A DNA stretch of 64,000 nucleotides, taken from a virus. The translations under genes and the position numbers were made by a program. Positions within the stretch are counted from its first letter, which is position 1. Each line of letters begins with the position of its first letter. Positions 1-55,477 of the stretch are shown one piece after another. The stretch covers positions 69,290 through 133,289 of IMG/VR virus record IMGVR_UViG_3300025674_000019. One strand, 5' to 3'. The notes below the pieces were generated by a model that did not search any database, had not been told where the DNA came from, and saw only the letters and a list, made by a program, of their open reading frames with translations.

Positions 1-80
1 CGGCTGACTGTTACTCTTCTATGAGCACGCCACCAGCCTGTACGATTTGAGCTGCTTCTTCACACCGTAGGCAACTATAC

Positions 81-152
81 TGGGCCGCCCGGGACTCGAA
101 CCCGGAACCAATGGATTAAAAGTCCACTGCTCTACCATTGAGCTAGCAGCCC
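81..152 (-). tRNA. tRNA-Lys(UUU)
   Basis: Reverse complement GGGCTGCTAGCTCAATGGTAGAGC...GTGGA-CTTTTAA-TCCAT...GGTTCGAGTCCC...GCGGCCCA forms a full cloverleaf; CCA not encoded. Confidence 0.95.
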
Positions 153-175
153 ATGCGCCCCTAGCGGGGCGCTGA

Positions 176-1600
176 CTAAAAGTCGTCTGTCAGCAAGACG
201 TAGGAACTATACGCTGTTAGGGCCGACAATGCTAGGGTCGTTATACCAAGAATCTTATGGCCAGTAGGATATCTCTCCCCCCAGGTGGACAAGCCTCCAT
301 GCACAGAAAGATCCCCTGTGTTTAGGCAGAGGTTACCTTCTTGCTTATAGTCACGACCACAATCTCTGTAGTACTCACCCGCCAACCAGTTGCCCGCAGC
401 TACCAAAGAGAGCAGGCCCCCTAGAACTACAACAGGGTAGTTCCACTCCCCGGGCGCTTCACTGTAGTCCACCAGGCCCCTCGTTACGGCTATTCGGCCC
501 GGCTCTACTTCGGAGTACCTATCGTATGAGCTAAGAGTGTGGATACCCAAGCCATCCTTAAGCACGTGAGTGTAGCCCCAGCCTGGAAGAGAGTCCTGTA
601 GATATTCTCTTAGAGAATGCAGCTCAGCTTCTCTACTAGCCACCTCTCGAGTTTTCTCCGCTATGGCGGGAGACTCTACGTCTATACCGTAGGCCTCTAT
701 CTCTTCATCAAGGTACTCTTGATATCCGAATAGCTGTAGGTGCTCTAGGACTGCAGCCTTCAGAGTAGCCCCGGACACGCTATCGAAGCCCTGTACCTCT
801 CGCAGCGCGGCTAGGTGTGATTCTCTGCCGATAGGCTCAACCCTGGGAGAGTTAAGTATCTCAAGAAATCTACTATACTTCCTAGAGTAGTCCCTCAGGT
901 ACAGCTTGTAGTGCTGTACTTTACGCAGGGCGAGATCAGAGTAGTCTGGGTACTGAATTAAATTGTCCCATAACCTGAGGCGCTCGCTAGCGCTTATACT
1001 CGGGTCAGAGTCAGATTGGGTAGCGTTCTCCAGAGCTCTCATAGCCTCCAGGTCCATAGACCGAGAAGCCCTTAGCTCTGCTACTCTAGTTGCATCAAGT
1101 AATAACCCTTCTCTTCCCTGGCGAGAGAAGCTAACAGGCGCCTCCCCTTCCCTGGTAGTAGCGTTTAGCTTCAGAAAGAAAGCGAGCCTTCTAGACAGCT
1201 CACCAGTGTTACCTATAGAAGAAGACTCGCTGAAGACACTTGTGCCTTCTAGTGATCTAAAAACCTCTAAAGATAACCTTCCAGCTAAAAGCCTGCCTGC
1301 CACTACCCAGTCTGCCCCGACAGTTCTGCCTATATTTACAGAGCACATGTCGGAGCAGTCTTCTAGCTCAGTGCCTTCAGGCAGCAAAGCCTCTACGTTC
1401 TCACTACTGAGAGTCCTATAGGCGGCAGGGTCCGAGATAGTCCTGCGCACTTGCCCAGTGAGATCTATCGCAGCAGTATCTCCCTGTATATTTAGAACTA
1501 GTACACGTGGAAGGCTAGAGGACCTCTCTACTGGCTTGGGCCCTGCGCCACAGCCAAGCAGAAAAGATAAACTAGTAATGCCTACGAATAAGTATCGCAA
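176..1600 (-). CDS. Putative lipoprotein with CsgG/TolB-N-like domain and C-terminal hydrophobic segments
   Basis: TTG at 1600 gives MRYLFVGITSLSFLLG-C (lipobox); CSDMCSVNIGRTVGADWVVAGRL resembles the C-x-D-x-C...G...GAD-x-V-x-G motif common in myxobacterial proteins; ORF track extends to 1642. Confidence 0.6.
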   Translation of the reverse strand: MRYLFVGITSLSFLLGCGAGPKPVERSSSLPRVLVLNIQGDTAAIDLTGQVRRTISDPAAYRTLSSENVEALLPEGTELEDCSDMCSVNIGRTVGADWVVAGRLLAGRLSLEVFRSLEGTSVFSESSSIGNTGELSRRLAFFLKLNATTREGEAPVSFSRQGREGLLLDATRVAELRASRSMDLEAMRALENATQSDSDPSISASERLRLWDNLIQYPDYSDLALRKVQHYKLYLRDYSRKYSRFLEILNSPRVEPIGRESHLAALREVQGFDSVSGATLKAAVLEHLQLFGYQEYLDEEIEAYGIDVESPAIAEKTREVASREAELHSLREYLQDSLPGWGYTHVLKDGLGIHTLSSYDRYSEVEPGRIAVTRGLVDYSEAPGEWNYPVVVLGGLLSLVAAGNWLAGEYYRDCGRDYKQEGNLCLNTGDLSVHGGLSTWGERYPTGHKILGITTLALSALTAYSSYVLLTDDF

Positions 1601-1760
1601 AGCCAAGCAACAAGAACCAGCCAATGCCCGTCCACCCTGCAAAGATATTAAGCAGGAAGATACCGGGGGTACGGCGCAGCTTACGGGAGCTAGCGATTAT
1701 ACTCGGTAGGAAGTAGGCTACAGTTATACCAAAGCCGATTACTAGAGCTTCAACGCTCAT
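1572..1760 (-). CDS. imm: Superinfection immunity protein (T4 Imm-like)
   Basis: YFLPSIIA...IFLLNIFAGWTGIGW matches the Imm family signature; small, hydrophobic. Confidence 0.8.
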   Translation of the reverse strand: MSVEALVIGFGITVAYFLPSIIASSRKLRRTPGIFLLNIFAGWTGIGWFLLLGFAILIRRHY

Positions 1761-1911
1761 CGCGCTTATTCCTCAATTGCTTGAGTGCCCACTTCGGAGG
1801 GTTCTTCATAAGATAAACCTTTTGAAGAAACTCCAAAGGATCTTTATATTCTGACTGGTTACTCCAGTTGCTTAGTACTTCAGGGTGCAACCCTTTGTGC
1901 GTCTCTTTCAT
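1750..1911 (-). CDS. Hypothetical 53-aa protein
   Basis: Strong RBS AAGGAGGAACT before ATG; MKETHKGLHPEV...; overlaps the imm start; below the ORF-track cutoff. Confidence 0.6.
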   Translation of the reverse strand: MKETHKGLHPEVLSNWSNQSEYKDPLEFLQKVYLMKNPPKWALKQLRNKRDER

Positions 1912-1934
1912 AGTTCCTCCTTTGAAGAGACAAG

Positions 1935-2008
1935 CGTACCAGGCAGGGCTCGAACCTGCGACCCTCGGCTTAGGAGGCCGATGCTCTATCCATCTGAGCT
2001 ACTGGTAC
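1935..2008 (-). tRNA. tRNA-Arg(CCU)
   Basis: GTACCAGTAGCTCAG...TCGGC-CTCCTAA-GCCGA...GGTTCGAGCCC...CTGGTACG cloverleaf. Confidence 0.95.
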
Positions 2009-2067
2009 CTATGTCCGGGTTTACCGGACTGAGGGCACTTAGTCCAGAACTTCTACTAGCTCAAGAC

Positions 2068-2262
2068 TTACTCCTCCGTATACCCATCGAACCAAGGCCC
2101 AAACCTCTTAGTTCTACGCACAGCCTCAGGACTGGTAGCTGTGCGGCTACTTGTCTCTGGGTCCCTGCAGTGAGCCTGAGCTTCTTCCTCAGTGAGCCCT
2201 GTCTGCCCGTAGTCTCTACGAGAAGAGTCCCTGTAGAAGCGAACTATTTTATAAGTCGCCAC
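2068..2262 (-). CDS. Conserved small phage hypothetical protein
   Basis: YKIVRF...GLTEEEAQAHCRDPETSS...WFDGY resembles a recurrent small phage protein; likely GTG start at 2262. Confidence 0.7.
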   Translation of the reverse strand: MATYKIVRFYRDSSRRDYGQTGLTEEEAQAHCRDPETSSRTATSPEAVRRTKRFGPWFDGYTEE

Positions 2263-2506
2263 TACCATACCCGCTCTTAGGCCCACGCACATGATCGAGC
2301 ATAGCTTCCCAGTCCTCAGCAAATGTCACTAAGTCTGATAGATAGTTCTCTTGAACCATCTTATACGAATTCCTAGGGGACACCCTAGGCTCCTTACCCT
2401 GAGACTGCTCCATAAGCTTGGAGAACTCTTCGTAGCTAAGTCCAGCTTTAGCGCAGATCAACTGAAGCGCTCTTTCTGCCGGAGTATAGTTTCGACCTCT
2501 AGCCAT
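2249..2506 (-). CDS. Hypothetical protein
   Basis: 85-aa ATG ORF co-oriented with and overlapping its neighbour. Confidence 0.6.
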   Translation of the reverse strand: MARGRNYTPAERALQLICAKAGLSYEEFSKLMEQSQGKEPRVSPRNSYKMVQENYLSDLVTFAEDWEAMLDHVRGPKSGYGSGDL

Positions 2507-2580
2507 AACACACGATACCCGTGCTTTTGTAGCATCTACTGCTTTCGTTGTTCATGCTTTACCTCCATGAACAGAGTGAG

Positions 2581-2654
2581 TACTCGGAGTGGGACTTGAA
2601 CCCACGACCCCCGGTATGTAAGACCGGTGCTCTAACCAACTGAGCTACCCGAGT
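2581..2654 (-). tRNA. tRNA-Val(UAC)
   Basis: ACTCGGGTAGCTCAGTTGG...CCGGT-CTTACAT-ACCGG...GGTTCAAGTCCC...CCGAGTA. Confidence 0.95.
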
Positions 2655-2714
2655 ATAGATTCCCCACCTCAATGGAGCTTAGTGCAGTAATATTAATAAA
2701 CGAGGCGGGGAAAG

Positions 2715-2787
2715 TGCTGGAAGAGGGACTTGAACCCCCGGCCGGCTGATTACAAATCAGCAGCTCTACCAACTGAGCTATTCCAGC
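2715..2787 (-). tRNA. tRNA-Thr(UGU)
   Basis: GCTGGAATAGCTCAGTTGG...GCTGA-TTTGTAA-TCAGC...GGTTCAAGTCCC...TTCCAGCA. Confidence 0.95.
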
Positions 2788-2905
2788 TTAGGTCCCGCAG
2801 TACTAGGCTACCCTGCGGAGCGGTAATGGGCAAAAGGAGGAAAATCCCAAGACCCTTTGGCTTAAACTGCTCACCACAAACAATATGCACCTCCGAATCG
2901 CCTAC

Positions 2906-2987
2906 TGCCCCGGGCCGGACTCGAACCGGCACGCCTCTCGGCGGGAGATTTTAAGTCTCCTGTGTCTACCGGTTCCACCACCAGGGC
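2906..2987 (-). tRNA. tRNA-Leu(UAA)
   Basis: GCCCTGGTGGTGGAA...GGAGA-CTTAAAA-TCTCC, long variable arm, GGTTCGAGTCC. Confidence 0.95.
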
Positions 2988-3026
2988 ATATCCTTCCTTT
3001 CCTAGTATCAATGGCGTATATGCGCG

Positions 3027-3218
3027 TCAACACATTTCTGCAAGCCAAGACTCTCCTGAGGGAGTAACTCGCCAAGTGGCATCGCCCATAGTAACAATGG
3101 CGTAGGTTTCTGAAGGCTTCGATACTACTTTGAAGCCCCACTTGTTATCTTTAGAGTCTTTCGTAAGAAACTCGACGCCCTTAAGGACGATATCTACATT
3201 CTTTCTTCTATTTTTCAT
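3027..3218 (-). CDS. Hypothetical protein
   Basis: 63-aa ATG ORF overlapping the upstream gene end, same operon. Confidence 0.55.
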   Translation of the reverse strand: MKNRRKNVDIVLKGVEFLTKDSKDNKWGFKVVSKPSETYAIVTMGDATWRVTPSGESWLAEMC

Positions 3219-3768
3219 CTATATCCTTTGGCCACCAATAAGGAGGCTCCGCGTTAGTCCAAGTGGCAAACTTAGCTTTGTCTGCTACGTAGAACTTCCT
3301 ATAAGACCCCACAGGGTCACTAGGATCTTTAAGATGCTCAAGCTCAGGCCCGAATGCTAGATAAGGGGGCGTAACCTTATCCTGCCTAGGGAACAAGCAC
3401 CTTCCCTCTAACCTAAGCCCTAGAGCAAACCTAAAGGCCAACTTAGCTACGCGGTAACTCTTATGCTGAGTACCGAATCTAAGCCTCTGCTGGCTACTCA
3501 TGCCTATAGAATGCCTGTAAGCCCATTTAAAATTAGGCCAGCTCTCTCCTACCCAGATCGTGCACCCATGCTTATGGTGTGCCGTCTTATAGAGGAACTT
3601 AAGCCCCTCTGGGAGCTGCTCTCTAGGGACGTTTATTAGCCCCATGCGCATCCTTACAGCTGTACACAGCATTTGAGCTGTCTCTAGCTGCATTAAAGTG
3701 ACGTGTTGATCGCACAACCACCCTGCTGCTTTGAGAGGATTATGGTCCAGATAAAATACGTTCAACAT
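3208..3768 (-). CDS. Pyrimidine-dimer DNA glycosylase / DenV-like family protein, paralog 2
   Basis: NVFYLDHNP..AA..LCDQHV..M.LE.AQML; YKTAH..H.CT.W; YR.FY..DK..FATW...EPP.WW. Confidence 0.8.
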   Translation of the reverse strand: MLNVFYLDHNPLKAAGWLCDQHVTLMQLETAQMLCTAVRMRMGLINVPREQLPEGLKFLYKTAHHKHGCTIWVGESWPNFKWAYRHSIGMSSQQRLRFGTQHKSYRVAKLAFRFALGLRLEGRCLFPRQDKVTPPYLAFGPELEHLKDPSDPVGSYRKFYVADKAKFATWTNAEPPYWWPKDIDEK

Positions 3769-4313
3769 TTTTCTTTAGGCCACCAGGGTGGCGGCTCAGA
3801 GTTAGTCCAGGTGGCAAACTTAGCTTTGTCTGCTATGTAGAACCTCCTGTATGACCCCGCCGGGTCCATCGGGTTCTTTAGGTGCTCTAGTGCTGGACCG
3901 AATGCCATATAGGGAGGAGTAGTAGTCATAGACTCAGGGAGAATAAAGTTATGCTCCTTTCTCTCTTTATGCAGGAACAACCAAGCATCCTTAGCGACCC
4001 GAAAGCTTTTATGCCTCGTACCAAATCGCTGCTTGTGTTGCGCGTGCATTTGAATAACGTGCATAAACAGCCATTGAAAGTTACTAAAGCACTCTCCCAC
4101 CCATTTAGTACTGCCGTGCTTAGGATGAGCCGTCTTGTAGAGAAACTTAAGCTCGTCGGGAAGCTCTTCTCTTGGAGTATCCTCCAGGCTCATGTGAACT
4201 CTAATAGCCGTACACATCATCTGTGCAGACTCTAGAATCATCTTAGAGACATGTTGATCACACAGCCAAGTAGCGGCTATAACTGGGTCGTCATCAAGGT
4301 AGAATACGTTCAC
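3762..4313 (-). CDS. Pyrimidine-dimer DNA glycosylase / DenV-like family protein, paralog 1
   Basis: MNVFYLDDDP..AA..LCDQHVSKMILESAQM signature; same C-terminal motif as the neighbour. Confidence 0.85.
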   Translation of the reverse strand: MNVFYLDDDPVIAATWLCDQHVSKMILESAQMMCTAIRVHMSLEDTPREELPDELKFLYKTAHPKHGSTKWVGECFSNFQWLFMHVIQMHAQHKQRFGTRHKSFRVAKDAWLFLHKERKEHNFILPESMTTTPPYMAFGPALEHLKNPMDPAGSYRRFYIADKAKFATWTNSEPPPWWPKEKC

Positions 4314-4678
4314 TAGAACTTCTTGAGAACTCGGTGCACTTCGTAGTAGCTAAGGGCTCCGCGCTCTTCTATATCTGTGATTTCGTCTCCCAGACGTATA
4401 AACTGGTAAGACGTGTCCAGGCCTTGAGAGTCTAGCCATCTAAGGTAGTAGACTACTCTGTCTATCTTAGGATTGTCACAGAACTCGTACCACCTGGTAT
4501 TCACAGAGGAGAACTCAACCAACTCTTCTTCCTCTTGCATGGTACAAAAGACGAACTTAAGCGTGTCAAGGATAGAGTCTTTACCCTCTCCTGTAACCCA
4601 AAGCTCATACTCTTCAGTCTTTCTAGAAAGCTCTTCGCTAGTAGAGAAGACCAGGGTAACATCGCTTCTATAGCTCAT
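4313..4678 (-). CDS. Conserved phage hypothetical protein
   Basis: MSYRSDV...RWY...YQFIRLGDE..DIEERG, a recurrent phage protein pattern. Confidence 0.7.
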   Translation of the reverse strand: MSYRSDVTLVFSTSEELSRKTEEYELWVTGEGKDSILDTLKFVFCTMQEEEELVEFSSVNTRWYEFCDNPKIDRVVYYLRWLDSQGLDTSYQFIRLGDEITDIEERGALSYYEVHRVLKKF

Positions 4679-4683
4679 CTAAA

Positions 4684-4765
4684 TGCCCAGGGAGGGAATC
4701 GAACCCTCACGCCCGAAGGCACAGGAACCTAAATCCTGCGCGTCTACCAATTCCGCCACCTGGGC
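4684..4765 (-). tRNA. tRNA-Leu(UAG)
   Basis: GCCCAGGTGGCGGAATTGGTAGACGCG-CAGGA-TTTAGGT-TCCTG, long variable arm, GGTTCGATTCCC. Confidence 0.95.
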
Positions 4766-4878
4766 AGGCCCAAGCACATTGGCAGCTTTGACTCTAAAGG
4801 TCAATAGGCTCGTATAGAGCTTCTTATAATAGAGTTCAGCATAGCACATGCTCATCTCCTAAAAGACATTAGCAAAAG

Positions 4879-4961: not shown

Positions 4962-5171
4962 TTATTCCTTACTGTACCACCCTACCCAGACAAAGCCGAA
5001 CAGGGGTGATATGAACATTGGGATTGCGATCACATCAGGGATCCATGGAGAACCCTTAATCGCAATACAGCTCGCTGCCAAGCAGCCCAGGAGTACCTGG
5101 ATTTCCCGGTTGAAGAGCTGCTTGAGTATCTCTCCCCAGCTCATCTCGGGCTCGTGCTCGGGCTCGCTCAA
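4962..5171 (-). CDS. Small membrane protein
   Basis: 69 aa with two hydrophobic segments; 4-bp overlap with the upstream gene. Confidence 0.6.
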   Translation of the reverse strand: MSEPEHEPEMSWGEILKQLFNREIQVLLGCLAASCIAIKGSPWIPDVIAIPMFISPLFGFVWVGWYSKE

Positions 5172-6286
5172 CTCTCGCCACCTTCCTTAGCTGCGAGCTT
5201 AGCGTGGATCCGGGCGTGGATCCGGGCGATCTTGAGGACACTCTCGGTATCCTCCATCGCCTCGAATGGATCCCCAGGTAGATCCAAGGTGAAGGCCCAC
5301 GCCTTCTCCGAGCACCTGCTCCCTCGGCCCTTGTAGAAGCGAGCCTTCTCAGCAAGCTCAGGAAACTCCTTCTCAAGGATGAGCATCGTCTCGCGGTGAC
5401 GAATGCTCTGCCGAGCGGCTGGGTCCGCGCTCACGTAGAGGTTGACCTCTCGGTCGTACCCTGGGATAGAGAAGAGCCTGCGTGCACACCCATCTTTATT
5501 TTCCCAGGACCCCTTAGGGAGGTACTTAACCTCACCCTCAGAGATCTCCCTTGGCAGGAGAATGTCAACATCCGATAGGCCATTAGCGTCAGCTAGGCCA
5601 CCAGATACGTGGACACACCCGAAGGGTAGTTCTCCGACAACATCGTCAAAGATGTCGTCCTGGGTCTGAAAGCTCGCACCCCACTTCAGGAGCCTCTTGC
5701 GATACTCACGGATCCAGCCGTAGCTGGCTCCGCGCCTCTCCAAGTGGCCGGGAGCCAAAAGCACCATCCAGGAGCGGACATTATGAAGGCGGTCCCGCCT
5801 CCAGTCTACTTCCCGGTGGATCCTCCGGTACTCCTCGAAGGCTTCAAGCACCTTCCCAGAGGTACCCATAGCTCTCAGGACATTGAGAGCTGTGTCCACC
5901 TCCTGGACCTCCATCGAACGCCACCAGAAGTCAGCGTTGAAGCAGGGCCCAACCGCCTCACCGAGGCTGCGGATCGCCTGACGAAGATCCACCTGAAACC
6001 CAGCAAGCTTGGTCTCCAGAGAGTACTCTTCGTCTTGGCAATTGATGAGCGCTCGGACCATCTCGTCACAGAGGCTCTCACTCTCGTCGCCGCCTTCAGA
6101 GAGCAGCTGATCTACGAGCACCTCAACCCAGGAGCGCTCTTCGACCTCGCAGGCACCTTCGCCTGCTTTGAGGACAGTACCGTCCTCTAAGTCTTGCTGG
6201 TAGATCTTGTCGAGATCCCAGCCCTGACCTGCAACGCCAATACGGGCGTTCTTTTTAGTATCTGAGGTTCCCCCAGTTGCAGACAT
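5168..6286 (-). CDS. Hypothetical protein with C-terminal nucleotidyltransferase-like domain
   Basis: ATG with AGGAGG RBS; VHVSGGLADANGLSDVDILL resembles the pol-beta NTase hG[GS]...hDhDh motif; GC-rich. Confidence 0.55.
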   Translation of the reverse strand: MSATGGTSDTKKNARIGVAGQGWDLDKIYQQDLEDGTVLKAGEGACEVEERSWVEVLVDQLLSEGGDESESLCDEMVRALINCQDEEYSLETKLAGFQVDLRQAIRSLGEAVGPCFNADFWWRSMEVQEVDTALNVLRAMGTSGKVLEAFEEYRRIHREVDWRRDRLHNVRSWMVLLAPGHLERRGASYGWIREYRKRLLKWGASFQTQDDIFDDVVGELPFGCVHVSGGLADANGLSDVDILLPREISEGEVKYLPKGSWENKDGCARRLFSIPGYDREVNLYVSADPAARQSIRHRETMLILEKEFPELAEKARFYKGRGSRCSEKAWAFTLDLPGDPFEAMEDTESVLKIARIHARIHAKLAAKEGGES

Positions 6287-6314
6287 AATGACCTCCTAAA
6301 GCCATGTCCAATTT

Positions 6315-6345
6315 CTTATACCAGATCCAACCCTAAGATTTGTGT
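6315..6345 (-). promoter_or_regulatory. Putative phage early promoter
   Basis: ACACAAAT-N14-TGGTATAAG upstream of the 5168-6286 gene; same spacing as other copies. Confidence 0.55.
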
Positions 6346-6365
6346 GTACGGTAATGGAGGGTAGC

Positions 6366-7226
6366 ATGCTTACTTTTAGTGAGTTGGAAGTTTCGCCTAG
6401 TGAGATCGACGACCTTTACGACAGGGGATTTGCTAAGAATACCAAACACTTAGAATCAGGCTTCTATGCTTTCAAGTCTGGCAATCAGTCAGCTCTTGTT
6501 CATTGCAGAGGAGACTACATCGACCTCATAGAGTCAAAGGGGCTCACCTTCCAAGGAGTAAAGCCAAGGGACTCTAAGCAAACTTGCATGATGTTCTCTA
6601 TGGCTAACTACCCGCTCACTGTAGCTATGGGCGCAGCTGGAACAGGTAAGACAACGCTAGCGTGCGCCTTTGCCCTTCACTCCCACTTTAAGAAAGACAA
6701 TAACATAGTACTACTGAAGCCTACTTCTTTTACTACAAAGATGAGCAACGCCATAGCACCTATACCCGGAGACCATCGTGAGAAGATGGCTGGGTACATA
6801 GATTCATACTTATTTGCTATGAACAATATACTAGGTGAAAACTTTGAGCATTACCTCTTTCAGCTGGAAGAAGAGAAGAAGCTAGTCTACCAACCCCTTG
6901 AACTTGTTAGGGGAATGAACTTTGATAAGAGTACTATCATCATCGATGAAGCCCAGAATACTACACCCCATGAGTTACTTACTGTTATATCCCGTGTAGC
7001 AGAATCAAGTAAGATCATAGTGATGGGTGACCTACAGCAAATAGACATAGGTCTAGAGCCAGAAGAGACAGGGCTAGGCTGCCTTCTAGACTCAGACCTA
7101 TTTTGGGACAGCCCTCACTGCGGAGCCATAGAGCTAGACTCTCAGTACCGAGGCCCACTGGCAGAACTAGCGGGAGAAATACTAAAGGATCTCTACGCGC
7201 AAAAAGAACCCATCAAAATGGCATAA
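6366..7226 (+). CDS. phoH: PhoH-family ATPase
   Basis: GAAGTGKT Walker A, PIPGD..EKM, PLELVRGMNF, IIIDEAQN, MGDLQQID; GGAGG RBS before ATG 6366. Confidence 0.93.
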   Translation: MLTFSELEVSPSEIDDLYDRGFAKNTKHLESGFYAFKSGNQSALVHCRGDYIDLIESKGLTFQGVKPRDSKQTCMMFSMANYPLTVAMGAAGTGKTTLACAFALHSHFKKDNNIVLLKPTSFTTKMSNAIAPIPGDHREKMAGYIDSYLFAMNNILGENFEHYLFQLEEEKKLVYQPLELVRGMNFDKSTIIIDEAQNTTPHELLTVISRVAESSKIIVMGDLQQIDIGLEPEETGLGCLLDSDLFWDSPHCGAIELDSQYRGPLAELAGEILKDLYAQKEPIKMA

Positions 7227-7234
7227 GTATATGA
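7197..7234 (+). promoter_or_regulatory. Putative phage early promoter overlapping the phoH end, directly upstream of the large RNA
   Basis: GCGCAAAA-N14-TGGCATAAGTATATGA; 21 nt identical to 9732-9752. Confidence 0.65.
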
Positions 7235-7250
7235 GTGAAGCATTTATGTA

Positions 7251-7870
7251 GTGTAGCGGCCTACCGGTTGCGCATGGACTTCACTTTTGCTGTGCTGCGA
7301 AGCATAGCGCGACGGCCACACCTGCAGCAGATTCGTCTGTGGCGTTCAGCAGGGAAAAGCTCAGAGGTCTGCCGAAGACTATCTACCTGGGCTGGGGCTT
7401 GGTATCCCTATTTAACAAAATTACCAGGCGGTGCGCTGAGGAGTGCACTGGAGCTTGACGTAGTCACGTAAAGCTATAGCCTGGCAGCTTCGGCTGTCAG
7501 CAGTTCGAGAGGACTGAGCGGGGGAGAGGGTCTCGCTGCAAAACAAAAGACACTCTACGATCAGCTTAAGTGACATTTGCTGAGCGTTTTCCAGTGTAGT
7601 GGTGCGGCACTCACAATGGATAAGTAATGGGAAAACTTCGGGCTCGTCCCGGAGTTCCGTGCAATAGGCGAAAGCCTACCCACGTCGGGGACAATAACAA
7701 GCAAAACCGGCGGCTAGAAGAGAAAGGTGCGCACCTTATATAGGGCAATCCGAATATCTTAGCAGAGCCTCGGCAGGCCATTGGTAACTGTCGGGTAGAT
7801 GCCTCTCGGTGGAGGCTGCTCTAAAGGAAGGTTGAAGCGCTAAGAACTGGCTCACTTTGGTGGGTCTTTC
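7251..7870 (+). ncRNA. Large ornate structured non-coding RNA (size and context like GOLLD/ROOL; family unassigned)
   Basis: Hairpins with GCGA, UUCG, GAGA and GAAA tetraloops; long-range helices 7366-75/7770-79, 7381-90/7791-7800, 7406-11/7740-45, 7430-36/7729-35, 7444-53/7589-98; no credible ORF. Confidence 0.75.
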
Positions 7871-7886
7871 TCTGACGCGTGGAGGC

Positions 7887-7954
7887 CTTTTCTTTAGCTC
7901 TTACACCTGATGATAGACGTAAATTGGTACCTCCAAATTGGCATAAGCATCTGA
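7887..7954 (+). repeat. Terminator-tail + promoter element, copy A
   Basis: CTTTTCTTTAGCT..TGATGATAGACGTAAA...AAATTGGCATAAG. Confidence 0.8.
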
Positions 7955-8013
7955 ACCAAAAAAAGGGCTTACACAGCCCACTTCTACGCAGGCCTAAGGC
8001 CGAGGAGAGAGAT

Positions 8014-8598
8014 ATGTCTGACTATCTTTTTAGTGGGTACTTTAATAATCAGAATCTACTAAGCGGGTCCGCTACGGGACTCTTCGACAACCGACACCTC
8101 CAGGACCTCCTGGAGGAGGGCCTAGAGCCCACGGAGGTTGACTGGGGAGGGGACTCCCGTCGCTGCTGGGCCTGGTGCCCAGAGGAGGTAGCCACTAGAA
8201 ATCCAGGCTTCGGAAGACCAGTAAGATGGCGCAGGGGCCGCGGAGCCCCAGAAGCAATCACTTTCGGAGGGGCGGTGTTTACCTCCCGCGAGTGGAAGAA
8301 AAGCACAGTCGCGAGGAGGAGAGCCGGTGCGCGCTCAAGAAAGTGGGAGGAGCCTCAGCAGAGGCCCTCGTTCACTTTTCTGCTGCGCAGGCGCGCAGAG
8401 GAAAAGAGCTGTAGTGTAGCCAAGCTACTACTCCAGCAACTGCGCATAGAAAGGCTGACCCACCTGCCGCGGTGGGACGGGGGGCTAGAGCCTCTCCGGA
8501 AGGCTATTATGGCCGCCGAGTGGCAAGGGCTGCCATACGGCCACAGCTTCCAGAGTTTCTGGGAGTGGTGGGCAGTCCACATCCACCCCAGGCTCTAG
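8014..8598 (+). CDS. Hypothetical early protein
   Basis: GAGGAG RBS before ATG 8014 (MSDYLF...); GC-rich; between repeat copies A and B. Confidence 0.65.
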   Translation: MSDYLFSGYFNNQNLLSGSATGLFDNRHLQDLLEEGLEPTEVDWGGDSRRCWAWCPEEVATRNPGFGRPVRWRRGRGAPEAITFGGAVFTSREWKKSTVARRRAGARSRKWEEPQQRPSFTFLLRRRAEEKSCSVAKLLLQQLRIERLTHLPRWDGGLEPLRKAIMAAEWQGLPYGHSFQSFWEWWAVHIHPRL

Positions 8599-8637
8599 GC
8601 CCGGGGCGGGGCCTGAACCCGCTCTCGGAGCCCTGCC

Positions 8638-8703
8638 CTTTTTTAGCTCTTACATCCGATGATAGACGCAAAACAGGGGTAGCAAATTGGCATAAGTATA
8701 TGA
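8638..8703 (+). repeat. Terminator-tail + promoter element, copy B
   Basis: CTTTTTTAGCT..GATGATAGACGCAAAACAGGGGTAGCAAATTGGCATAAGTATATGA after a GC hairpin. Confidence 0.85.
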
Positions 8704-8738
8704 AGCGATTGTTTAACAGCACACAAAGGAGTTTCAAA

Positions 8739-9272
8739 GTGCTGAATTTCTTCAAGAACCTCTTTCGCCCTGCCCTCCCTCCCGTCACCTCCGGGAACAT
8801 TCTCTACGGGGATTTCCCCGGGTACAAGACCTGGTTCTGTTCTAACGAGATTCCGGTCGAGATCGGGGAGCGCGTTCACGCGATCACCAACCACCGCTGC
8901 GACGAGCTCTCGCTGGAGAGCGAGGCGCTGGCGGCGAGGGACGCAGGGCAGCCCCTGGTTCCAGTAACCCTCAAGACCCCTCGCGGGGACCTACGAGGAT
9001 TCTGCTGGCACCACTCAGGCTGTAACGGCCGCGACAGCATCGCGGCCCTACTGACCTTCGGGTCAGTCGAGGACCTTCTCGTTCAGATCGCGGAGCGAAA
9101 GCTCCTCAATCATTTCGAGTGGGAGGGCAAGCTGTATTCAATCACTTCAAGCGATTGGACCCAAGAGCACGTCGTGCGGGCCGCGAGGCCTCTCACCGAC
9201 CGAGAGCGGCGGAAGCCCACTGAGGCGGAAGCGGAGCTGGTGTGGGACGTGAGCTACACGAGGAGCATGTAA
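8739..9272 (+). CDS. Hypothetical early protein
   Basis: AAGGAG RBS before GTG 8739 (MLNFFKNLF...). Confidence 0.65.
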   Translation: MLNFFKNLFRPALPPVTSGNILYGDFPGYKTWFCSNEIPVEIGERVHAITNHRCDELSLESEALAARDAGQPLVPVTLKTPRGDLRGFCWHHSGCNGRDSIAALLTFGSVEDLLVQIAERKLLNHFEWEGKLYSITSSDWTQEHVVRAARPLTDRERRKPTEAEAELVWDVSYTRSM

Positions 9273-9665: not shown

Positions 9666-9752
9666 AAAGAAAAGCCTAAGGAACTTTTCTTTTAGCTATG
9701 ACGCCTGACGATAGACGCAAAACAGGGGTAGCAAAATGGCATAAGTATATGA
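9666..9752 (+). repeat. Terminator hairpin + promoter element, copy C
   Basis: AAAGAAAAGCCTAAGGAACTTTTCTTTTAGCTATGAC then GATAGACGCAAAACAGGGGTAGCAAAATGGCATAAGTATATGA. Confidence 0.85.
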
Positions 9753-28323: not shown

Positions 28324-30726
28324 TTACTGGGACTCAAGGGTGATCTGGATCTTATTAAGAACCTTTGGTAGCGATACATTTAAAAGTATAACCACCGTAC
28401 CCGCATCACTGGGAGACTCTTCGACAGAAATAATGTCAGCGTCTCGCAGGGGCGCACCGATGCGATCAACGACCCTAGCCCTTAGGCTGAGGATAGCTGA
28501 GTCGAGGGAGCTTGCGATAGAGGCGAGGGCCTGCGGAATAACATTCCAGGTTCCGACGTAGGGAGTAAGGGTATTCTTAAAGACCTTGCTCACATAGTCA
28601 AAGTTATTAACAACGCTAAGCTCCGAGAACTCTTGGGTCCCAGCGAAGTCACGGTAAGCGCATGTTACCTGGTGCACGCAGAATGGGAGTCCACCGGTTG
28701 TCTCCTGAACGAAAACAAAGTATCCGTTGTCCGAGAGAGAATCGATCTGATCATCATTAAAGTAGCCGAGGTTAGACGCAGCTAAGTTATCAATGCCAGA
28801 GATAGCAATGTTATTCTTCGGACGATGAGGCTCGAATGCGGCAAGCATCCCGCCTAGCGCGGCACCCAGGTAGTAGCCCGGCTGTCCAGACTCTCCAAGA
28901 ACAGTACATGACCCAGGGTAGACCATTACTAGGCGCTTCTGCGAGCTGAAGGTAGAGATCCTGTCGTTAAGGACAGCGACCTGCTCAGCCTTGTTAGAGC
29001 TAATATCAGCGTAGCCGATGAACTTGATAGCTCCAACTGCAGCAATGTTGCCCTCAGTGAGTGTAAGCTGAAGGGTAGAGTTACTGCTTACGGATGTAAC
29101 CGTGGCTTTAAGTAGAACATCAGCGTCCGAATCGAAGTAGAACTCTACAAGATCGCCGTCGCTCACGCTTGCTAGGAAGCTGGCATCTGCGTCAAGCAAC
29201 TCAGCGGTAGTAGTTTGGCCCTGCTGCTCAAAGGAAGAGATCCTCCCCGAGAGGTATTCAGAGTCAGACCCTGCCCAGTACTTGCGGAGGGGTGCACCCT
29301 CGCTTGCACCGATTACGATCCGGAAGTTATACTTCTGCTCAGAGCTAACAACAGCGTCTGTTACGAGGCTATTAATCACGCTAAGATCTGTAGTTAGAGG
29401 AATAATAGCGTAAGCGTCAGGGTCAGCGTTGATATACGAGCGAGCGTCGAGGTACCCCTGAGAAGAATCTTCCGCTAAGCGAAGAACCTTAACAGTGCTT
29501 GAGCCCGAGTTTTGCAGCGCAATGCTCGCTGCGAGACTTAGAGGGTTGTAAACCGAGGGCTCTCCAAGTACGTCTTGGAAGTCATTGCTGCTGACCGTAA
29601 GCGCCAGTGCACTGCTTTGCGTATTAAGAGTCCTTGTACGCAGGTACAGGTCTCCCCGAGTGATGGTAGACTCAGATAGGTTGGCCGCCCCAGGAATGTT
29701 AGTATCCTCTAGGAGGATGATTCCCTGCATGTTAAGGTCACCGCCGTCGATTGCCCACTCAGAGCTAGCGATCTCCAGGCCTGCAAGAGGAATGTCGTAC
29801 TCAGCGGATACTAGCCGCTCGATACGAACCGAAAGACCACGAACTGCGTCATCGGCAGCATCTCCGCCACCTAGGCAAAGCTGCCTAGGAATGTCAGCCA
29901 GCTGTAGAGTGGACCCCTGCGCAGACGCCTCAACCACCGTAGTGATCTGGTCTTCTGGGATAGCTAGAGTTCCCTGTACATAGCTGTGGTTCCCTTCGGC
30001 ATCAGTAAGCCTAAGAGTGACCTCGGTGCCCGCAGGATAGGATAAGGTTGCGGGGTCAGCACCATCAGTCTTACTAAAGAATGAGTCTTTAGTTTTGTCC
30101 GAGAGCAGGAGCTCAGAAGCACTGCCTAGTCCGTGCTGCGCCTCAGAGTAAAAGAGATCTACCTGAGACCCGTCAAACGCGGCTGCCTCTACGTGATTTG
30201 GCAAGATAGAGACACTAGCAGGAGACCGGTATGCCTCTCCGATTTCTACCCCCGCGCTAGCCACGAAGCGCGATGCCTGCTTAAAGCTAATAACCACTTT
30301 GTCATTAGGCAGAACTGAGTACCCACCGACGGAGTTTAGGTTCTCAGGGAACGATAGCTGGGTGCGAAGAGCGCCCACGTTAGCGTCGCTGTTAGCAGCA
30401 GGAGCAACTACGCTTGTCCCGCCGCCTACCTGAAAGTATGCGTTTGTTAGATATACTTTAGCAGCATACTCTGAGCCTGCGGCAGTATCTACGCTACCCC
30501 TGTCGCTGATATCTATATCAAAATTATAGGGATTTCCTGTATTAAAGTCCATTACACTGGTTCCAGTGTACGGGTTATACTCAGCGAGAGCGCTCCCTGG
30601 GTTATCCCGGTCAAAAGCAGTAAGGTCGTACTGCGGACCAACAAGAAGGACGCTCTGCTCGGGATCGTTTACCGTAGTCGTAATATTGGCTACGGTCTGT
30701 AAGACTTCAACTATTGGTCTAGGCAT
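28324..30726 (-). CDS. Contractile tail sheath protein
   Basis: 800 aa; C-terminal sheath signature (LVMVYP, PGYY..AALGG, ELSVVNNFDYV, L.VSLPKVLNKIQI). Confidence 0.8.
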   Translation of the reverse strand: MPRPIVEVLQTVANITTTVNDPEQSVLLVGPQYDLTAFDRDNPGSALAEYNPYTGTSVMDFNTGNPYNFDIDISDRGSVDTAAGSEYAAKVYLTNAYFQVGGGTSVVAPAANSDANVGALRTQLSFPENLNSVGGYSVLPNDKVVISFKQASRFVASAGVEIGEAYRSPASVSILPNHVEAAAFDGSQVDLFYSEAQHGLGSASELLLSDKTKDSFFSKTDGADPATLSYPAGTEVTLRLTDAEGNHSYVQGTLAIPEDQITTVVEASAQGSTLQLADIPRQLCLGGGDAADDAVRGLSVRIERLVSAEYDIPLAGLEIASSEWAIDGGDLNMQGIILLEDTNIPGAANLSESTITRGDLYLRTRTLNTQSSALALTVSSNDFQDVLGEPSVYNPLSLAASIALQNSGSSTVKVLRLAEDSSQGYLDARSYINADPDAYAIIPLTTDLSVINSLVTDAVVSSEQKYNFRIVIGASEGAPLRKYWAGSDSEYLSGRISSFEQQGQTTTAELLDADASFLASVSDGDLVEFYFDSDADVLLKATVTSVSSNSTLQLTLTEGNIAAVGAIKFIGYADISSNKAEQVAVLNDRISTFSSQKRLVMVYPGSCTVLGESGQPGYYLGAALGGMLAAFEPHRPKNNIAISGIDNLAASNLGYFNDDQIDSLSDNGYFVFVQETTGGLPFCVHQVTCAYRDFAGTQEFSELSVVNNFDYVSKVFKNTLTPYVGTWNVIPQALASIASSLDSAILSLRARVVDRIGAPLRDADIISVEESPSDAGTVVILLNVSLPKVLNKIQITLESQ

Positions 30727-35847: not shown

Positions 35848-36105
35848 TTACTCTCCGTCTTTGTTGTTATCCCTATCTAGCAGCTGGCCGCTGACCTGAA
35901 CGTACTTATCCAGGCTGGCCTGCCCAAGGATATAACCTACCTGTAAGAACCCACTAATAATGATAATAGTCATAAGCAGGGTCAACACATAGAAGTCAAT
36001 CTCTCCAGCATTACGCCAGAGGACTGCTCCAATGGTAAACTTCCACCCAAGCTCTCCGAGCAGGTAGGCCACGAACTTCTTAGACTTGAGTGGTAGTTTA
36101 TCCAT
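35848..36105 (-). CDS. Putative holin
   Basis: LKSKKF..., two TM segments, YILGQA..D, charged C-tail. Confidence 0.6.
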   Translation of the reverse strand: MDKLPLKSKKFVAYLLGELGWKFTIGAVLWRNAGEIDFYVLTLLMTIIIISGFLQVGYILGQASLDKYVQVSGQLLDRDNNKDGE

Positions 36106-38015
36106 TATACGGCGTACCAATCAGTTCCATTAAAAATTACTCTCAGGCTAGAGCGAGACCCTAGATTATTACCAGAGATATTCGACCCCCCGCTGTAAAT
36201 AGCCCCGCCATTTGCGGTCACGGTAATAGAGTTAGTCTCGTTGGTATTTACCACTACTATCTCTCGACCAGCAGTCTGAAACGCTGAGTTAGGGAGGGTA
36301 ACGTTACCTGTACAGAAAACTACGTGATCTGTAGAAGCAACCGAGGTATTGCTACTTTCTTTGTAGACCAAAGCTCCGTCGAAGTCGATACCTTGGTCAC
36401 CGCCTATAATCTTTCCAGCTACATTTATGTCACCAGAAACCTGAACCACTTCGCTCCCGCCAGTGGGGTTTAAAGTTAAGTTGCCGGTGCTAGTAATGCT
36501 AGTGCTGTTGATCGTTAGATCGTCAACTACTAGAGATGTAAAGCCTGTAGCGGCACCTCCAGTAATAGACGCAGTACCATCTGTTACCGTAGTAGCAGTA
36601 AGAGTCCCAGTAACATCAGCTCCTGAGCTTGTAACACTCAGTATCTCAGTATTATTTACGAACGTGTTAACCTCATTAGCGGTTCCAAAAGTAATATACT
36701 CTTGGTCTCCTGCGGTACCGAGCTTTGTAAAGCCCGAATTTATAATAGAGGTAAGCCCAGTGGCTTCTGGGGTTGTAGAAAGAACTCCGTTAGTTGCGGT
36801 AAGACCAGTACCAGCCGTAGCTGAGACAACGTCAGCAATAGCCTCTAGCTTAGTAGAGCTATCGGTAGCGTCAACAATAGCAATGCTGTCTGCAGAAACG
36901 TCTACAGCTGCACCTGCAAGACCATTTAGGTCGAGAGCCAGGGCTGACCCTCCGCCGCCAGTGAGACCATCGCCTGCTGCTGCAGTTGAGATCCTAACAG
37001 CGTCAGAGTCAATCTCCAGCCCTGCCCCAGTAGTAACCGCCAGAACACCGGCATTAGCAGCTAAGCCATCTCCAGCCGTAGCCGAGATAACGTCAGCAAC
37101 AGCCTCTAGCTTAGTGGAGCTATCGGTAGCGTCAACAATAGCAATGCTGTCTGCAGAAACATCTACAGCTGCACCTGCAAGACCATTTAGGTCGAGAGCC
37201 AGAACACCGGCATTAGCAGCTAAGCCATCTCCAGCCGTAGCTGAGATAACGTCCGCTAGGGCGTCTTTCTTCATTACTCCGTCAGAGTCTTCGAAGTAGA
37301 TTGAATCTTCTCCGACGGTCAGTGCGGTGTCTGCAGTAGCAGAAGCTGTGATTGGCCCTGCGATTGTTACGCCGCCAGTACCATCAGGGTCCAGAGTAAT
37401 GTTACCATTCTCCCCTGCAGCCAGGGTAATAGACCCGCTATTAGTGCCAGAGTTTGTCTGTAGAACAAGATTCTGAGCTCCACTGCTAGTTACAGTACCT
37501 GCAGCATCTCCCTCTCCGACTACTACAAGGTCAGAGGACAGGATTAGGCTCCCAGTACCGTCGGGAGTAAGAGTAAGGTCATTATCTGTACCAGAAGCAC
37601 TGACTAGGGCGTCGGCCTCCAAGTTAGTCACCACAAAGGTGGTATCCTCTAGGCCAGCTAGAGGTATGTCTGAACCCGGAGTTGGTTCATTAGTAAGCCC
37701 AGTAGCAAGCTTCCACTTTCCGTCTGAAGCATCTCGATACAGTACACTGTACTTAGGGGTCTCGCCTTCCTGATACTGAGCAAAGATACCTATGTCCAGC
37801 AAATCATCGGAGTTACCGTTAGCCAGCTTAATAAGAGGCTCATCCACCGTGAGATTATCTACATTAATCTCTGAAGCGTTCCCTATAATATTGAGGTTAC
37901 CAGTGATGGTGACATTCCCGAGAGCATTCATGTCCCCGGCGTAAACAGTCCCCCAGCGAAGGGCTGCAGTCCCTAGGTCATGACTACCTGTTGTTTTTGG
38001 AGCTACTGCTGCCAT
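36105..38015 (-). CDS. Tail fibre/spike protein with internal repeats
   Basis: DLGTAALRW..VY, GNL.I.G....I...NL.V.EPLI.L; repeated ADVISATAGDGLAANAGVLA. Confidence 0.75.
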   Translation of the reverse strand: MAAVAPKTTGSHDLGTAALRWGTVYAGDMNALGNVTITGNLNIIGNASEINVDNLTVDEPLIKLANGNSDDLLDIGIFAQYQEGETPKYSVLYRDASDGKWKLATGLTNEPTPGSDIPLAGLEDTTFVVTNLEADALVSASGTDNDLTLTPDGTGSLILSSDLVVVGEGDAAGTVTSSGAQNLVLQTNSGTNSGSITLAAGENGNITLDPDGTGGVTIAGPITASATADTALTVGEDSIYFEDSDGVMKKDALADVISATAGDGLAANAGVLALDLNGLAGAAVDVSADSIAIVDATDSSTKLEAVADVISATAGDGLAANAGVLAVTTGAGLEIDSDAVRISTAAAGDGLTGGGGSALALDLNGLAGAAVDVSADSIAIVDATDSSTKLEAIADVVSATAGTGLTATNGVLSTTPEATGLTSIINSGFTKLGTAGDQEYITFGTANEVNTFVNNTEILSVTSSGADVTGTLTATTVTDGTASITGGAATGFTSLVVDDLTINSTSITSTGNLTLNPTGGSEVVQVSGDINVAGKIIGGDQGIDFDGALVYKESSNTSVASTDHVVFCTGNVTLPNSAFQTAGREIVVVNTNETNSITVTANGGAIYSGGSNISGNNLGSRSSLRVIFNGTDWYAV

Positions 38016-54208: not shown

Positions 54209-55477
54209 CTATCTTCGTGTGTACCGCTGGTACGGCCTTACGTACCTGCCATACTCATCGACGTACCTTCTCTGATTAGGGTACTGCTCATAGTAGTCGT
54301 AAGTGGAAGGAAGAGGCGGGCCCACAGGGGTCTCAGCCTTGGTTCCAACTAAATTACCTAAAGACTCACCCGCAGAAGCTAGGTAGTGCGAGGGATTTAT
54401 AGCTTCTGTTCCAGGAACTATGCCCCAGGAAAGCATTCCCATAGGCCAAGTAGCAAGAGTACCAATTCCTTCGCCAACAGCGTGACCTACGTTACCTAGG
54501 TAGGTTCTACCTGAGCCTGCTTCAGGGCCATAGGCCAGTGCGGACCCTACTGCCGCTATAGGCATACCGCCTATGAGGCCTACCTTACCGACTTGCTGTA
54601 AGCTCCTTCCAGCTAGGCCTAAGCCTTCACGGGCGGCATCAAGTTTTCGCCCATCTTGTAATGCCGACCGTAGTCCTTGGTATCTCATACTCACACGAGG
54701 GTCCACCGCTAAGGCTCCCCGTACAATGCCCCCCTTACCAAATACTCCTCCTTGTAGAGCTCTGGCCCCGAGGACAGGGGCGTGGCCCATGTACAAGCCC
54801 GCCCCAAGGCGACCGTAAAGAAGTCTCTCAGGTATTGATTGAAACTGCCCTTTTTGAGTCAGTACATCTGCTGCTCTTCTAGCGTAGTAGCCACTCTGCT
54901 GCCCTAACCTTTGGCCTAATGTGGTATTACCTCTAATAACTTCTTTTACTCTAGACTTGCCTATTTCTTTAGCAGACTTTGCAGCAGCTTCTGCTCTCTT
55001 AAGATCTGCTGCTAAAGCAGTAGTATCTTGGCCCGCCGCCTGAGCAGCTCTCAGTTCTGTTCTTAGCCGGCTAACATTAGCTTGCGCCTGCTCCAAAGCT
55101 TGAGTGCTAGCTTGCTCAGCTCTTTGAACTTGGCCAGCCACATCCTGCCCGTAACTTTTAATCCTAGACTGCTCTAAAGACCTGGCTTTTGCTTCTGCAG
55201 CTGCAGCCCCTCTTCTTTCAGATTCTAGAGCCTGTCTTGATTTTATGAATCCCTGCTCGCCCTCTCTTAGGCCAGCCGCCCTATTATACGCGCCTCTTTC
55301 TATTCCCGAGCCCCTATGGATGTTCTTTTCCATCCACTTCTCAAGCCTGGGACTAGCTTTTATAACGTCGTCACTGAGGCCTACAAAAGGAGCTTTTGCG
55401 TAGCTAAGAGCAGTTCTAATCGCAGAGGCGTCTTTCTCCATTCCTAAGGGAAGGGGAACTAAGTCCATGCTGTCCAT
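54209..55477 (-). CDS. Putative ejection/internal protein
   Basis: MEKDAS near the N-terminus; coiled coil then Gly-rich hydrophobic C-half. Confidence 0.55.
   Translation of the reverse strand: MDSMDLVPLPLGMEKDASAIRTALSYAKAPFVGLSDDVIKASPRLEKWMEKNIHRGSGIERGAYNRAAGLREGEQGFIKSRQALESERRGAAAAEAKARSLEQSRIKSYGQDVAGQVQRAEQASTQALEQAQANVSRLRTELRAAQAAGQDTTALAADLKRAEAAAKSAKEIGKSRVKEVIRGNTTLGQRLGQQSGYYARRAADVLTQKGQFQSIPERLLYGRLGAGLYMGHAPVLGARALQGGVFGKGGIVRGALAVDPRVSMRYQGLRSALQDGRKLDAAREGLGLAGRSLQQVGKVGLIGGMPIAAVGSALAYGPEAGSGRTYLGNVGHAVGEGIGTLATWPMGMLSWGIVPGTEAINPSHYLASAGESLGNLVGTKAETPVGPPLPSTYDYYEQYPNQRRYVDEYGRYVRPYQRYTRR

Follow-up and report, generated by a model that had tools for sequence, protein, structure and literature searches.

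A candidate structured non-coding RNA of about 0.6 kb beside a phoH-like gene in an uncultured aquatic phage

The Locus

The stretch of DNA analyzed here (the window; 64,000 nucleotides, nt) makes up the second half of IMGVR_UViG_3300025674_000019, a virus record of 133 kb in IMG/VR with a CheckV completeness of 83%. A 787-nt gene-free gap at window positions 7227-8013 holds the stretch under study, 7251-7870, which an earlier reading of the letters (the original prediction) had proposed to be a large, ornately folded non-coding RNA (ncRNA). The gap is preceded on the + strand by a phoH-like gene (6342-7226), encoding a PhoH-like ATPase without a PIN domain (Pfam PF02562, E 4.9e-32; PHROG phrog_170; PDB 3b85, E 9.7e-15). 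This gene is complete and ends like its 88% identical relative. The gap is followed by a gene at 8014-8598, which starts with the ATG at 8014 and is preceded by a GGAGAG ribosome site and a promoter-like module of its own. The stretch between the two genes is non-coding, carries strand-specific hairpins beyond chance, is present in an RNA library, and has one hairpin that is kept by compensating changes in relatives. We consider it probable that the gap encodes a real, separately made, structured ncRNA of an uncatalogued family.

Coding Potential and Local Hairpins

The longest open reading frame (ORF) in the stretch is 78 amino acids (aa) long (7235-7471), further ORFs have 56 and 51 aa, and all 13 ORFs of at least 20 aa have the look of chance frames. 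A search of 5.8 billion protein clusters found no relatives for the 78-aa and 56-aa ORFs, in contrast to the neighboring PhoH, for which there are 106 at E ≤ 1e-20, including one that is 88% identical. The 78-aa ORF also found no relatives when used as a multi-pattern probe. In a relative from a lagoon metagenome, described below, the 78-aa frame is lost to 1-nt indels (7319, 7347, and 7457). With chance-like ORFs that lack protein relatives and a frame broken by indels, the stretch is non-coding, as proposed.

The local structure of the stretch is marked by hairpins with stable tetraloops. Counting hairpins of at least 5 base pairs (bp) that are capped by a GNRA or UNCG loop, we found five on the + strand of 7251-7870 and none on the - strand. 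The 2000 dinucleotide shuffles of the stretch had 0.26 ± 0.51 such hairpins with a maximum of 3, so that none reached five, and the genome averages 0.23 for every 620 nt of the + strand. Across this genome and those of seven related phages there are 36 ORF-free gaps of at least 350 nt, and the other 35 hold two at most. The five hairpins had all been named in the original prediction and are present as described. The first has 9 bp and a GCGA tetraloop (7288-7309; pair probability 0.99). The second, from the tetraloop-hairpin scan, has 5 bp and a UUCG loop with an A-U closing pair (7327-7340). Two more stand back to back without a spacer at 7481-7516, namely an 8-bp hairpin with a C(UUCG)G cap (7481-7500) and a 6-bp hairpin with a GAGA loop (7501-7516; probability 0.98 each). 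The last has 5 bp and a GAAA tetraloop (7665-7678; 0.96).

Several other hairpins are predicted on the + strand. Two adjoin each other at 7397-7450, one of 8 bp (7397-7404/7422-7429; probability 0.86) and one of 9 bp with the loop GAGG (7429-7437/7442-7450; 0.89). The predicted fold has another hairpin at 7452-7475 (7452-7456/7471-7475 plus 7458-7461/7466-7469) and one of 3 + 5 bp with a 13-nt loop at 7557-7587. A 9-bp hairpin with the loop CUCGU at 7634-7656 (7634-7642/7648-7656), brought out by the relatives' substitutions, costs 1.5 kcal/mol when enforced, and a 6-bp hairpin with the loop CGGU lies at 7801-7816 (probability 0.84). Hairpins of at least 8 bp with a loop of 8 nt or less number four, compared to 1.26 ± 1.0 in shuffled sequences, where 8 of 200 shuffles had as many. 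The sequence also has a perfect 10-nt palindrome, GGUGCGCACC, at 7726-7735 (+).

The fold as a whole favors the same strand. The minimum free energy (MFE) of 7256-7819 is -215.3 kcal/mol on the + strand, against -198.9 ± 6.6 kcal/mol for shuffled sequences (z -2.47; 1 of 150 shuffles as stable), and -186.7 kcal/mol on the - strand (z -1.74; 8 of 150). The ten best hairpins hold 12 G-U pairs, a count read by eye from the fold listings. The earlier statement that the G-U wobbles work on the + strand agrees with the difference in MFE.

Two readings without an RNA would be a DNA-level element, such as an origin or a packaging site, and a group of small protein genes. The stretch is ORF-poor and flanked by repeats, as such an element may be, and it does have three ORFs above 50 aa. 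The strand-specific hairpins and loops, the 12 G-U pairs, the tetraloop count of five against none, and the presence of the stretch in an RNA library all argue against a DNA element, and the frames broken by 1-nt indels in the relative and the missing protein relatives argue against small genes. We judge both to be highly improbable.

Tetraloop clusters were also seen elsewhere. One on the - strand of the window (36811-37244) consists of repeated GGCTG-GAGA-TGGCT and TCAGC-TACG-GCTGG units inside a 636-aa ORF (36105-38015) and was rejected as an RNA, being a tandem repeat within a coding region. The clusters in two related phage genomes (G008 and G009) were rejected since they lie inside ORFs.

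A part of one hairpin recurs in the genome. The 16-nt stretch 7570-7585, which comprises the 3′ half of the loop and the 3′ stem arm of hairpin 7557-7587, is found again in the cluster of transfer RNA (tRNA) genes at about 2314-2339 on the - strand (25 nt, 88% identical, 16 identical bases; BLAST E 0.02, nhmmer E 0.21). This copy sits in the 570-nt spacer between tRNA-Val and tRNA-Arg, on the tRNA strand. It may be a common binding or processing site, or chance.

Presence in RNA Libraries and Substitutions in Relatives

Some or all of 7227-8013 occurs in 17 of the 18 public runs listed, among them two metatranscriptomes (X2 and X3), with 0.71 of the sampled words in each. The runs X5, X7-X11, and X13-X18 have small shares, and we drew no conclusion from them, nor on habitat. 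We aligned four runs to window positions 6300-8700. In the environmental metatranscriptome X2, two overlapping contigs, 7256-7477 and 7466-7819, cover 7256-7819 at 100% identity, without a single difference. Thus, the stretch is present in an environmental RNA library. No X2 contig lies on 6300-7255 or 7820-8700; these uncovered parts count as no evidence and were used neither for the level nor for the ends of a transcript.

Two metagenomes hold relatives of the locus. A single 3428-nt contig from a lagoon metagenome (X12) spans 6304-7979 with 145 differences and 12 gaps (~91% identical) and keeps phoH and the RNA stretch together. The 11 places with indels that were listed for this contig all fall within 7319-7934 and none in phoH; six are 1-nt indels inside 7251-7870, and none of these six is in a helix with a pair probability of 0.8 or more. 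The insertion behind 7457, for example, is at the bulge of hairpin 7452-7475. A seawater metagenome (X6) gave 151-nt pieces, of which one (7545-7694) has 10 differences and one gap and another (7764-7914) has none.

Among the listed differences, the lagoon and the seawater relative have seven substitutions in the RNA in common: 7584 G>A, 7597 T>C, 7635 A>G, 7639 C>T, 7643 C>T, 7650 C>T, and 7655 T>C. Every one of them is a transition, versus three of the six shared substitutions in phoH. We checked the seven against all 409 helices of at least 6 bp. Hairpin 7634-7656 is the only one of these changed on both sides, with the pair 7635:7655 going from A-U to G-C. Two more of its pairs change and are kept as wobbles (7639:7651, C-G to U-G; 7640:7650, G-C to G-U), so that all three changed pairs still pair, and the fifth change (7643 C>U) is in the loop. 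All changes in this hairpin are common to both relatives. Hairpin 7557-7587 has, again in both relatives, one extra nucleotide in its loop, behind 7575, as well as the G>A change at its 1x1 mismatch (7584). The substitution at 7597 turns the pair 7445:7597 of a long-range helix (H5 below) from G-U to G-C, with the same gain for several other candidate partners. Together, the substitutions and indels lend real but thin support to selection at the level of the RNA.

Searches for Known Families and Homologs

A cmscan search of the whole window with the Rfam 15 models at gathering thresholds gave seven matches, all of them tRNAs, and the rest of the genome likewise gave only tRNAs. With lax filters and E ≤ 10, positions 7100-8100 gave one chance match to a small nucleolar RNA at 7902-8022 and nothing in 7251-7870. 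The Rfam 15 models of group I and group II introns, RNase P RNA, transfer-messenger RNA (tmRNA), OLE, HEARO, and raiA had no match, and neither had those of GOLLD (RF01998) and ROOL (RF03087), even at E ≤ 10. ARAGORN found no tRNA-like or tmRNA element in the stretch. The original prediction could not assign a family, and with no Rfam 15 match this stands.

The models could have overlooked a highly divergent representative of a known class (an ORF-less group II or group I intron, RNase P RNA, tmRNA, OLE, or HEARO). The size of the stretch fits ORF-less introns, and the string GAAAGGUGCGCACC is faintly reminiscent of RNase P. The 1-kb search with lax filters, though, found no such model at E ≤ 10, ARAGORN was negative for tRNA-like and tmRNA elements, and no gene is interrupted, since phoH is complete and the next gene has its own start. 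A divergent known class is therefore hardly to be expected.

GOLLD and ROOL deserve a separate comparison. RNAs of this type are often found near tRNAs in phages, and their hosts and habitats include Lactobacillales, the rumen, and lakes. Like the candidate RNA considered here, they are large, ornate RNAs (~0.6-0.8 kb) of phages or prophages, and, as would be the case here, they are separately transcribed. GOLLD, ROOL, and OLE are described as forming RNA-only complexes (10.1101/2024.12.08.627333). The present RNA could in the same way be a self-assembling RNA-only particle, a cage or a ring, unrelated to PhoH. Its size of ~0.6 kb and its phage origin fit, its many GNRA loops could dock into receptors, the palindrome at 7726-7735 could pair between copies, and a tRNA cluster lies 2.5 kb upstream. 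Against this, the GOLLD and ROOL models have no match at E ≤ 10, and palindromes of such size are common. The hosts and habitats of GOLLD and ROOL also differ from the present carrier, which has RNA-polymerase-beta-like genes. We regard a particle of this type as quite unlikely.

No homolog of the RNA itself was found in phage records or contig collections. The gap had no BLASTN match among 50,697 phage records, and exact 18-20-mers of the RNA occurred neither in viral contigs nor in metagenome contigs. An nhmmer search against seven whole related phage records and the genome itself found only the RNA itself at E < 0.2, and BLAST against the whole records of nine more distant phages gave only chance matches (e.g., L028, inside a 322-aa ORF). 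We also approached the locus through PhoH. As a single-sequence query, PhoH found no relatives in the viral contigs; as an alignment it found 12 loci, the best 49% identical, and as a degenerate pattern seven loci. PhoH together with its 88% relative found no loci in the genome contigs and three in the metagenome contigs, of which only one (L064) is close (89%); this one ends in the first third of phoH and so lacks the RNA. A match to a pattern of the promoter module (L067) was rejected as chance, with 29% GC and no similarity to the genome, and a further pattern search found nothing. In two relatives (G009 and G006), the ORF-free gaps behind phoH contain small genes in AT-rich sequence, unlike this RNA. 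As far as seen, the RNA appears confined to a narrow clade comprising this genome and the lagoon and seawater relatives.

Long-Range Helices

The original prediction listed six long-range pairings and took the crossing of the first two to imply a pseudoknot. All six are complementary in the + strand: H1 (7366-7375/7770-7779), H2 (7381-7390/7791-7800), H3 (7406-7411/7740-7745), H4 (7430-7436/7729-7735), H5 (7444-7453/7589-7598), and H6 (7757-7763/7839-7845). H1 does cross H2, and H6 crosses both. Such helices are, however, not above chance. With at least 9 bp, at most two G-U pairs, and a span of more than 100 nt, the stretch has five and shuffled sequences have 4.8 ± 2.2, with 110 of 200 shuffles equal to it. 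In constrained nested folds, H1, H2, or H6 alone costs 1.0-3.1 kcal/mol over the fold with the hairpins enforced. H3, H4, and H5 cost 6-9 kcal/mol because of competition with strong local hairpins, and nested sets cost ~17 kcal/mol. The 9-bp hairpin 7429-7437/7442-7450 is a competitor of H4 and H5. The palindrome GGUGCGCACC might pair with 7430-7436, as in H4, or else between two molecules of the RNA. Since long-range helices are as numerous in shuffles, a pseudoknot of crossing H1 and H2 is possible and stays unproven on one sequence.

Transcription Signals and Genome Context

A promoter-like motif overlaps the end of phoH on the + strand. It consists of CGCAAAA (7198-7204), nine further bases, and CAAAATGGCATAAGTATATGA (7214-7234). 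Both blocks, with equal spacing, precede units that start near 7955, 8704, and 9753. The string TGGCATAAG has exactly five + strand copies in the window, four of them at 7219, 7939, 8688, and 9737. The copies at 7939, 8688, and 9737 belong to full 60-85-bp modules, which combine a T-rich tail with GATAGACGCAAAA and CAAAWTGGCATAAGTATATGA and have a gene behind each. These repeated terminator-plus-promoter-like modules (7885-7955, 8635-8704, and 9683-9752) stand before successive small genes, and a further module is located ~40 kb upstream of the window (record ~29245-29300). The copy at 7219 is a partial module, in which CGCAAAA and the 21-nt block keep their spacing despite the overlap with the last phoH codons. 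The module has no match to the sigma-70 consensus and thus fits a phage polymerase.

At the other end of the stretch is a terminator-like hairpin (7849-7873) with a stem of 7 bp at 7849-7866 (probability 0.97), followed by TTTCTCT. Two of its pairs are G-U, so that these two form on the + strand only. From the motif, the terminator, and the contigs, the whole transcription unit would run from behind the promoter-like motif to the U-rich tail (7235-7873, +). The stretch does lie between a promoter-like motif and a terminator-like hairpin with its tail, as had been noted. The promoter of its own that was claimed for it is borne out as a motif copy in front of the RNA, shared with neighboring gene starts; the copy is partial, and its role as a promoter is inferred.

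With such signals around it, the stretch could instead be a long spacer, i.e., a 3′ trailer of phoH and/or a series of hairpins for protection, termination, or processing that separate early-gene cassettes, in which case the fold as a whole would have no function. The region is one of repeated terminator-promoter joints, the long-range helices are at chance level, the z-score of the whole stretch is modest, and no search found a distant homolog. Yet the other joints in the region measure ~60-85 bp compared to 640 bp here, termination has no need of five tetraloop hairpins, and none of the other 35 ORF-free gaps is similar. The unit also has its own copy of the promoter-like motif and a compensating change in one hairpin. 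A mere spacer seems unlikely to us.

The carrier of the locus probably brings its own multisubunit RNA polymerase, as suggested by a protein at 55477-57240 (-) that matches RNA polymerase beta-subunit PHROGs of phages (phrog_3015, E 7.5e-13; phrog_25354, E 2.7e-30). Among the matches listed, no PhoH of a cultured phage is more than 34% identical to this one, and the carrier is therefore of an uncultured type. It is an uncultured aquatic phage encoding RNA-polymerase-beta-like proteins. Six tRNA genes predicted by ARAGORN are clustered at 80-4766, on the strand opposite to the RNA. Between this cluster and phoH, and divergently oriented from the latter, is a gene for a 372-aa protein (5168-6286, -) without a Pfam or PHROG family; in the ESM Atlas it has weak nucleotidyltransferase (NTP_transf_2) leads (score 0.90, TM ≤ 0.44), which were not used. 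The lagoon contig skips 7979-8557 and has 616 other letters instead, so that the gene 8014-8598 is replaced between two modules, which fits exchangeable cassettes. A second ORF-poor region, candidate RNA "A" (~970 nt; record ~65212-66177), lies ~3.1 kb ahead of the window. It is not similar in sequence to the present RNA, and Rfam at the gathering threshold gave no match for it.

A Separately Transcribed RNA as the Preferred Explanation

The explanation that we favor, with a confidence somewhat above even, is that of a separately transcribed, stably folded ncRNA gene whose family is absent from Rfam 15. The product would be a + strand RNA of ~565-640 nt, extending roughly from 7235/7256 to 7819/7873. 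Its transcription would start at the phage-type motif 7198-7234, a putative promoter, and would stop at the hairpin 7849-7873. The RNA would then act in trans as a folded molecule.

A number of points weigh against this explanation. The main weakness is that neither the three contig collections, nor the BLAST search of phages, nor the detours through proteins produced a second copy of the RNA. The contigs of X2 tell of presence and not of strand, ends, or level, and an RNA library can contain DNA. The tetraloop count by itself is unspecific, as four such hairpins occur within 140 nt at 9050-9191 (+), inside a GC-rich 178-aa gene (GTG 8739 to 9272, ribosome site AAAGGAG) that reads as a genuine gene. 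The stretch folds better than shuffled sequences on the + strand, the comparison by which the original prediction was to be judged, though it does so moderately. For 7240-7880, z is a modest -1.70 on the + strand (1 of 20 shuffles) and -1.22 on the - strand (3 of 20), beside the -2.47 (1 of 150) for 7256-7819. The substitutions seen in the relatives come from 40 of 201 difference rows, the view of covariation is limited to one hairpin in two relatives, and several alternative helices also fit the seven substitutions. Finally, the RNA is more similar than phoH in X6 (10/150 and 0/151 differences versus 21/149 and 16/116). We rejected this as a sign of conservation because the run was picked by words of the RNA and the pieces possibly come from different strains.

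The PhoH-Like Neighbor

The RNA starts ~10-30 nt after the stop of the phoH-like gene, on the same strand. Almost the entire encoded protein (residues 7-283) aligns to positions 149-425 of 427, the helicase part, in the NCBIfam model NF053827, "RNA 5′-3′ helicase PhoH2". The model of the classical PhoH, PRK10536, aligns to residues 72-237 only, with 75 bits compared to a cut-off of 380. By its sequence, the neighbor is related to the helicase module of PhoH2 and lacks the PIN domain; a phoH2 gene would be expected to encode PIN_4 and PhoH domains.

Bacterial phoH2 genes, which encode a PIN domain and a PhoH helicase, are described in a preprint as adjoining long structured RNA candidates (10.64898/2026.10.21.760802). 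In that description, COMPASS cluster #1,412,455 adjoins phoH2 in 148 of 326 loci, and besides it 26 further clusters lie 5′ or 3′ of phoH2. Other PhoH2 lineages have RNA architectures that differ from one another and are conserved in structure; 14 clusters are 5′ of the gene and 13 are 3′ of it (10.64898/2026.10.21.760802). As the preprint presents them, these RNAs resemble ours in being long and multistem, in having no Rfam family, and in standing directly beside a gene for a PhoH2-type helicase, some of them 3′ as here. In the preprint, RNA-seq coverage is concentrated on the RNA. They differ in being from bacterial loci with PIN + PhoH proteins, whereas the present case is a phage with a PIN-less protein. 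By description, the motif in the preprint has 357 nt versus ~0.6 kb for this RNA. Recurrence with the protein lineage across many loci would be expected of such an RNA; the pairing seen here is absent in all seven more distant phage relatives.

By analogy with the RNAs beside bacterial phoH2, the RNA could be a partner, substrate, or decoy of the upstream PhoH2-like helicase. Of the mechanisms that can be named this partnership is the most concrete. It draws on position and analogy, and even within our preferred explanation we hold it to be doubtful. Three points speak against it. The score against NF053827 is 58.9 bits, far below the cut-off of 680, and the PIN domain is missing. Of the seven IMG/VR contigs with a PhoH that is 49-51% identical, none has a comparable RNA beside phoH or elsewhere. 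The word "phage" has no occurrence in the main text of the preprint (10.64898/2026.10.21.760802). The pairing of RNA and phoH is kept in the ~91% identical lagoon relative, and its absence in the seven distant ones speaks against a general rule. That the RNA is a dedicated partner of the PIN-less PhoH2-like helicase, the two forming an RNA-protein machine made early in infection, is an unlikely form of the idea.

Implications

Large RNAs with an intricate fold and no known job are rare, and they keep showing unexpected roles. Few "auxiliary" genes of aquatic phages are as common as phoH, whose role, to our knowledge, is still not understood. A folded 0.6-kb RNA behind a phoH2-like gene of a phage offers a helicase-RNA pairing that can be tested for binding, unwinding, and protection. 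Even if the link to PhoH does not hold, the small number of large RNAs known from phages gains a candidate new family, seen up to now in a single genome and a few of its near relatives. If the partnership is true, it would extend the pairing of PhoH2 and RNA from bacteria to viruses, and would be the first concrete handle on the role of the widespread phoH of phages.

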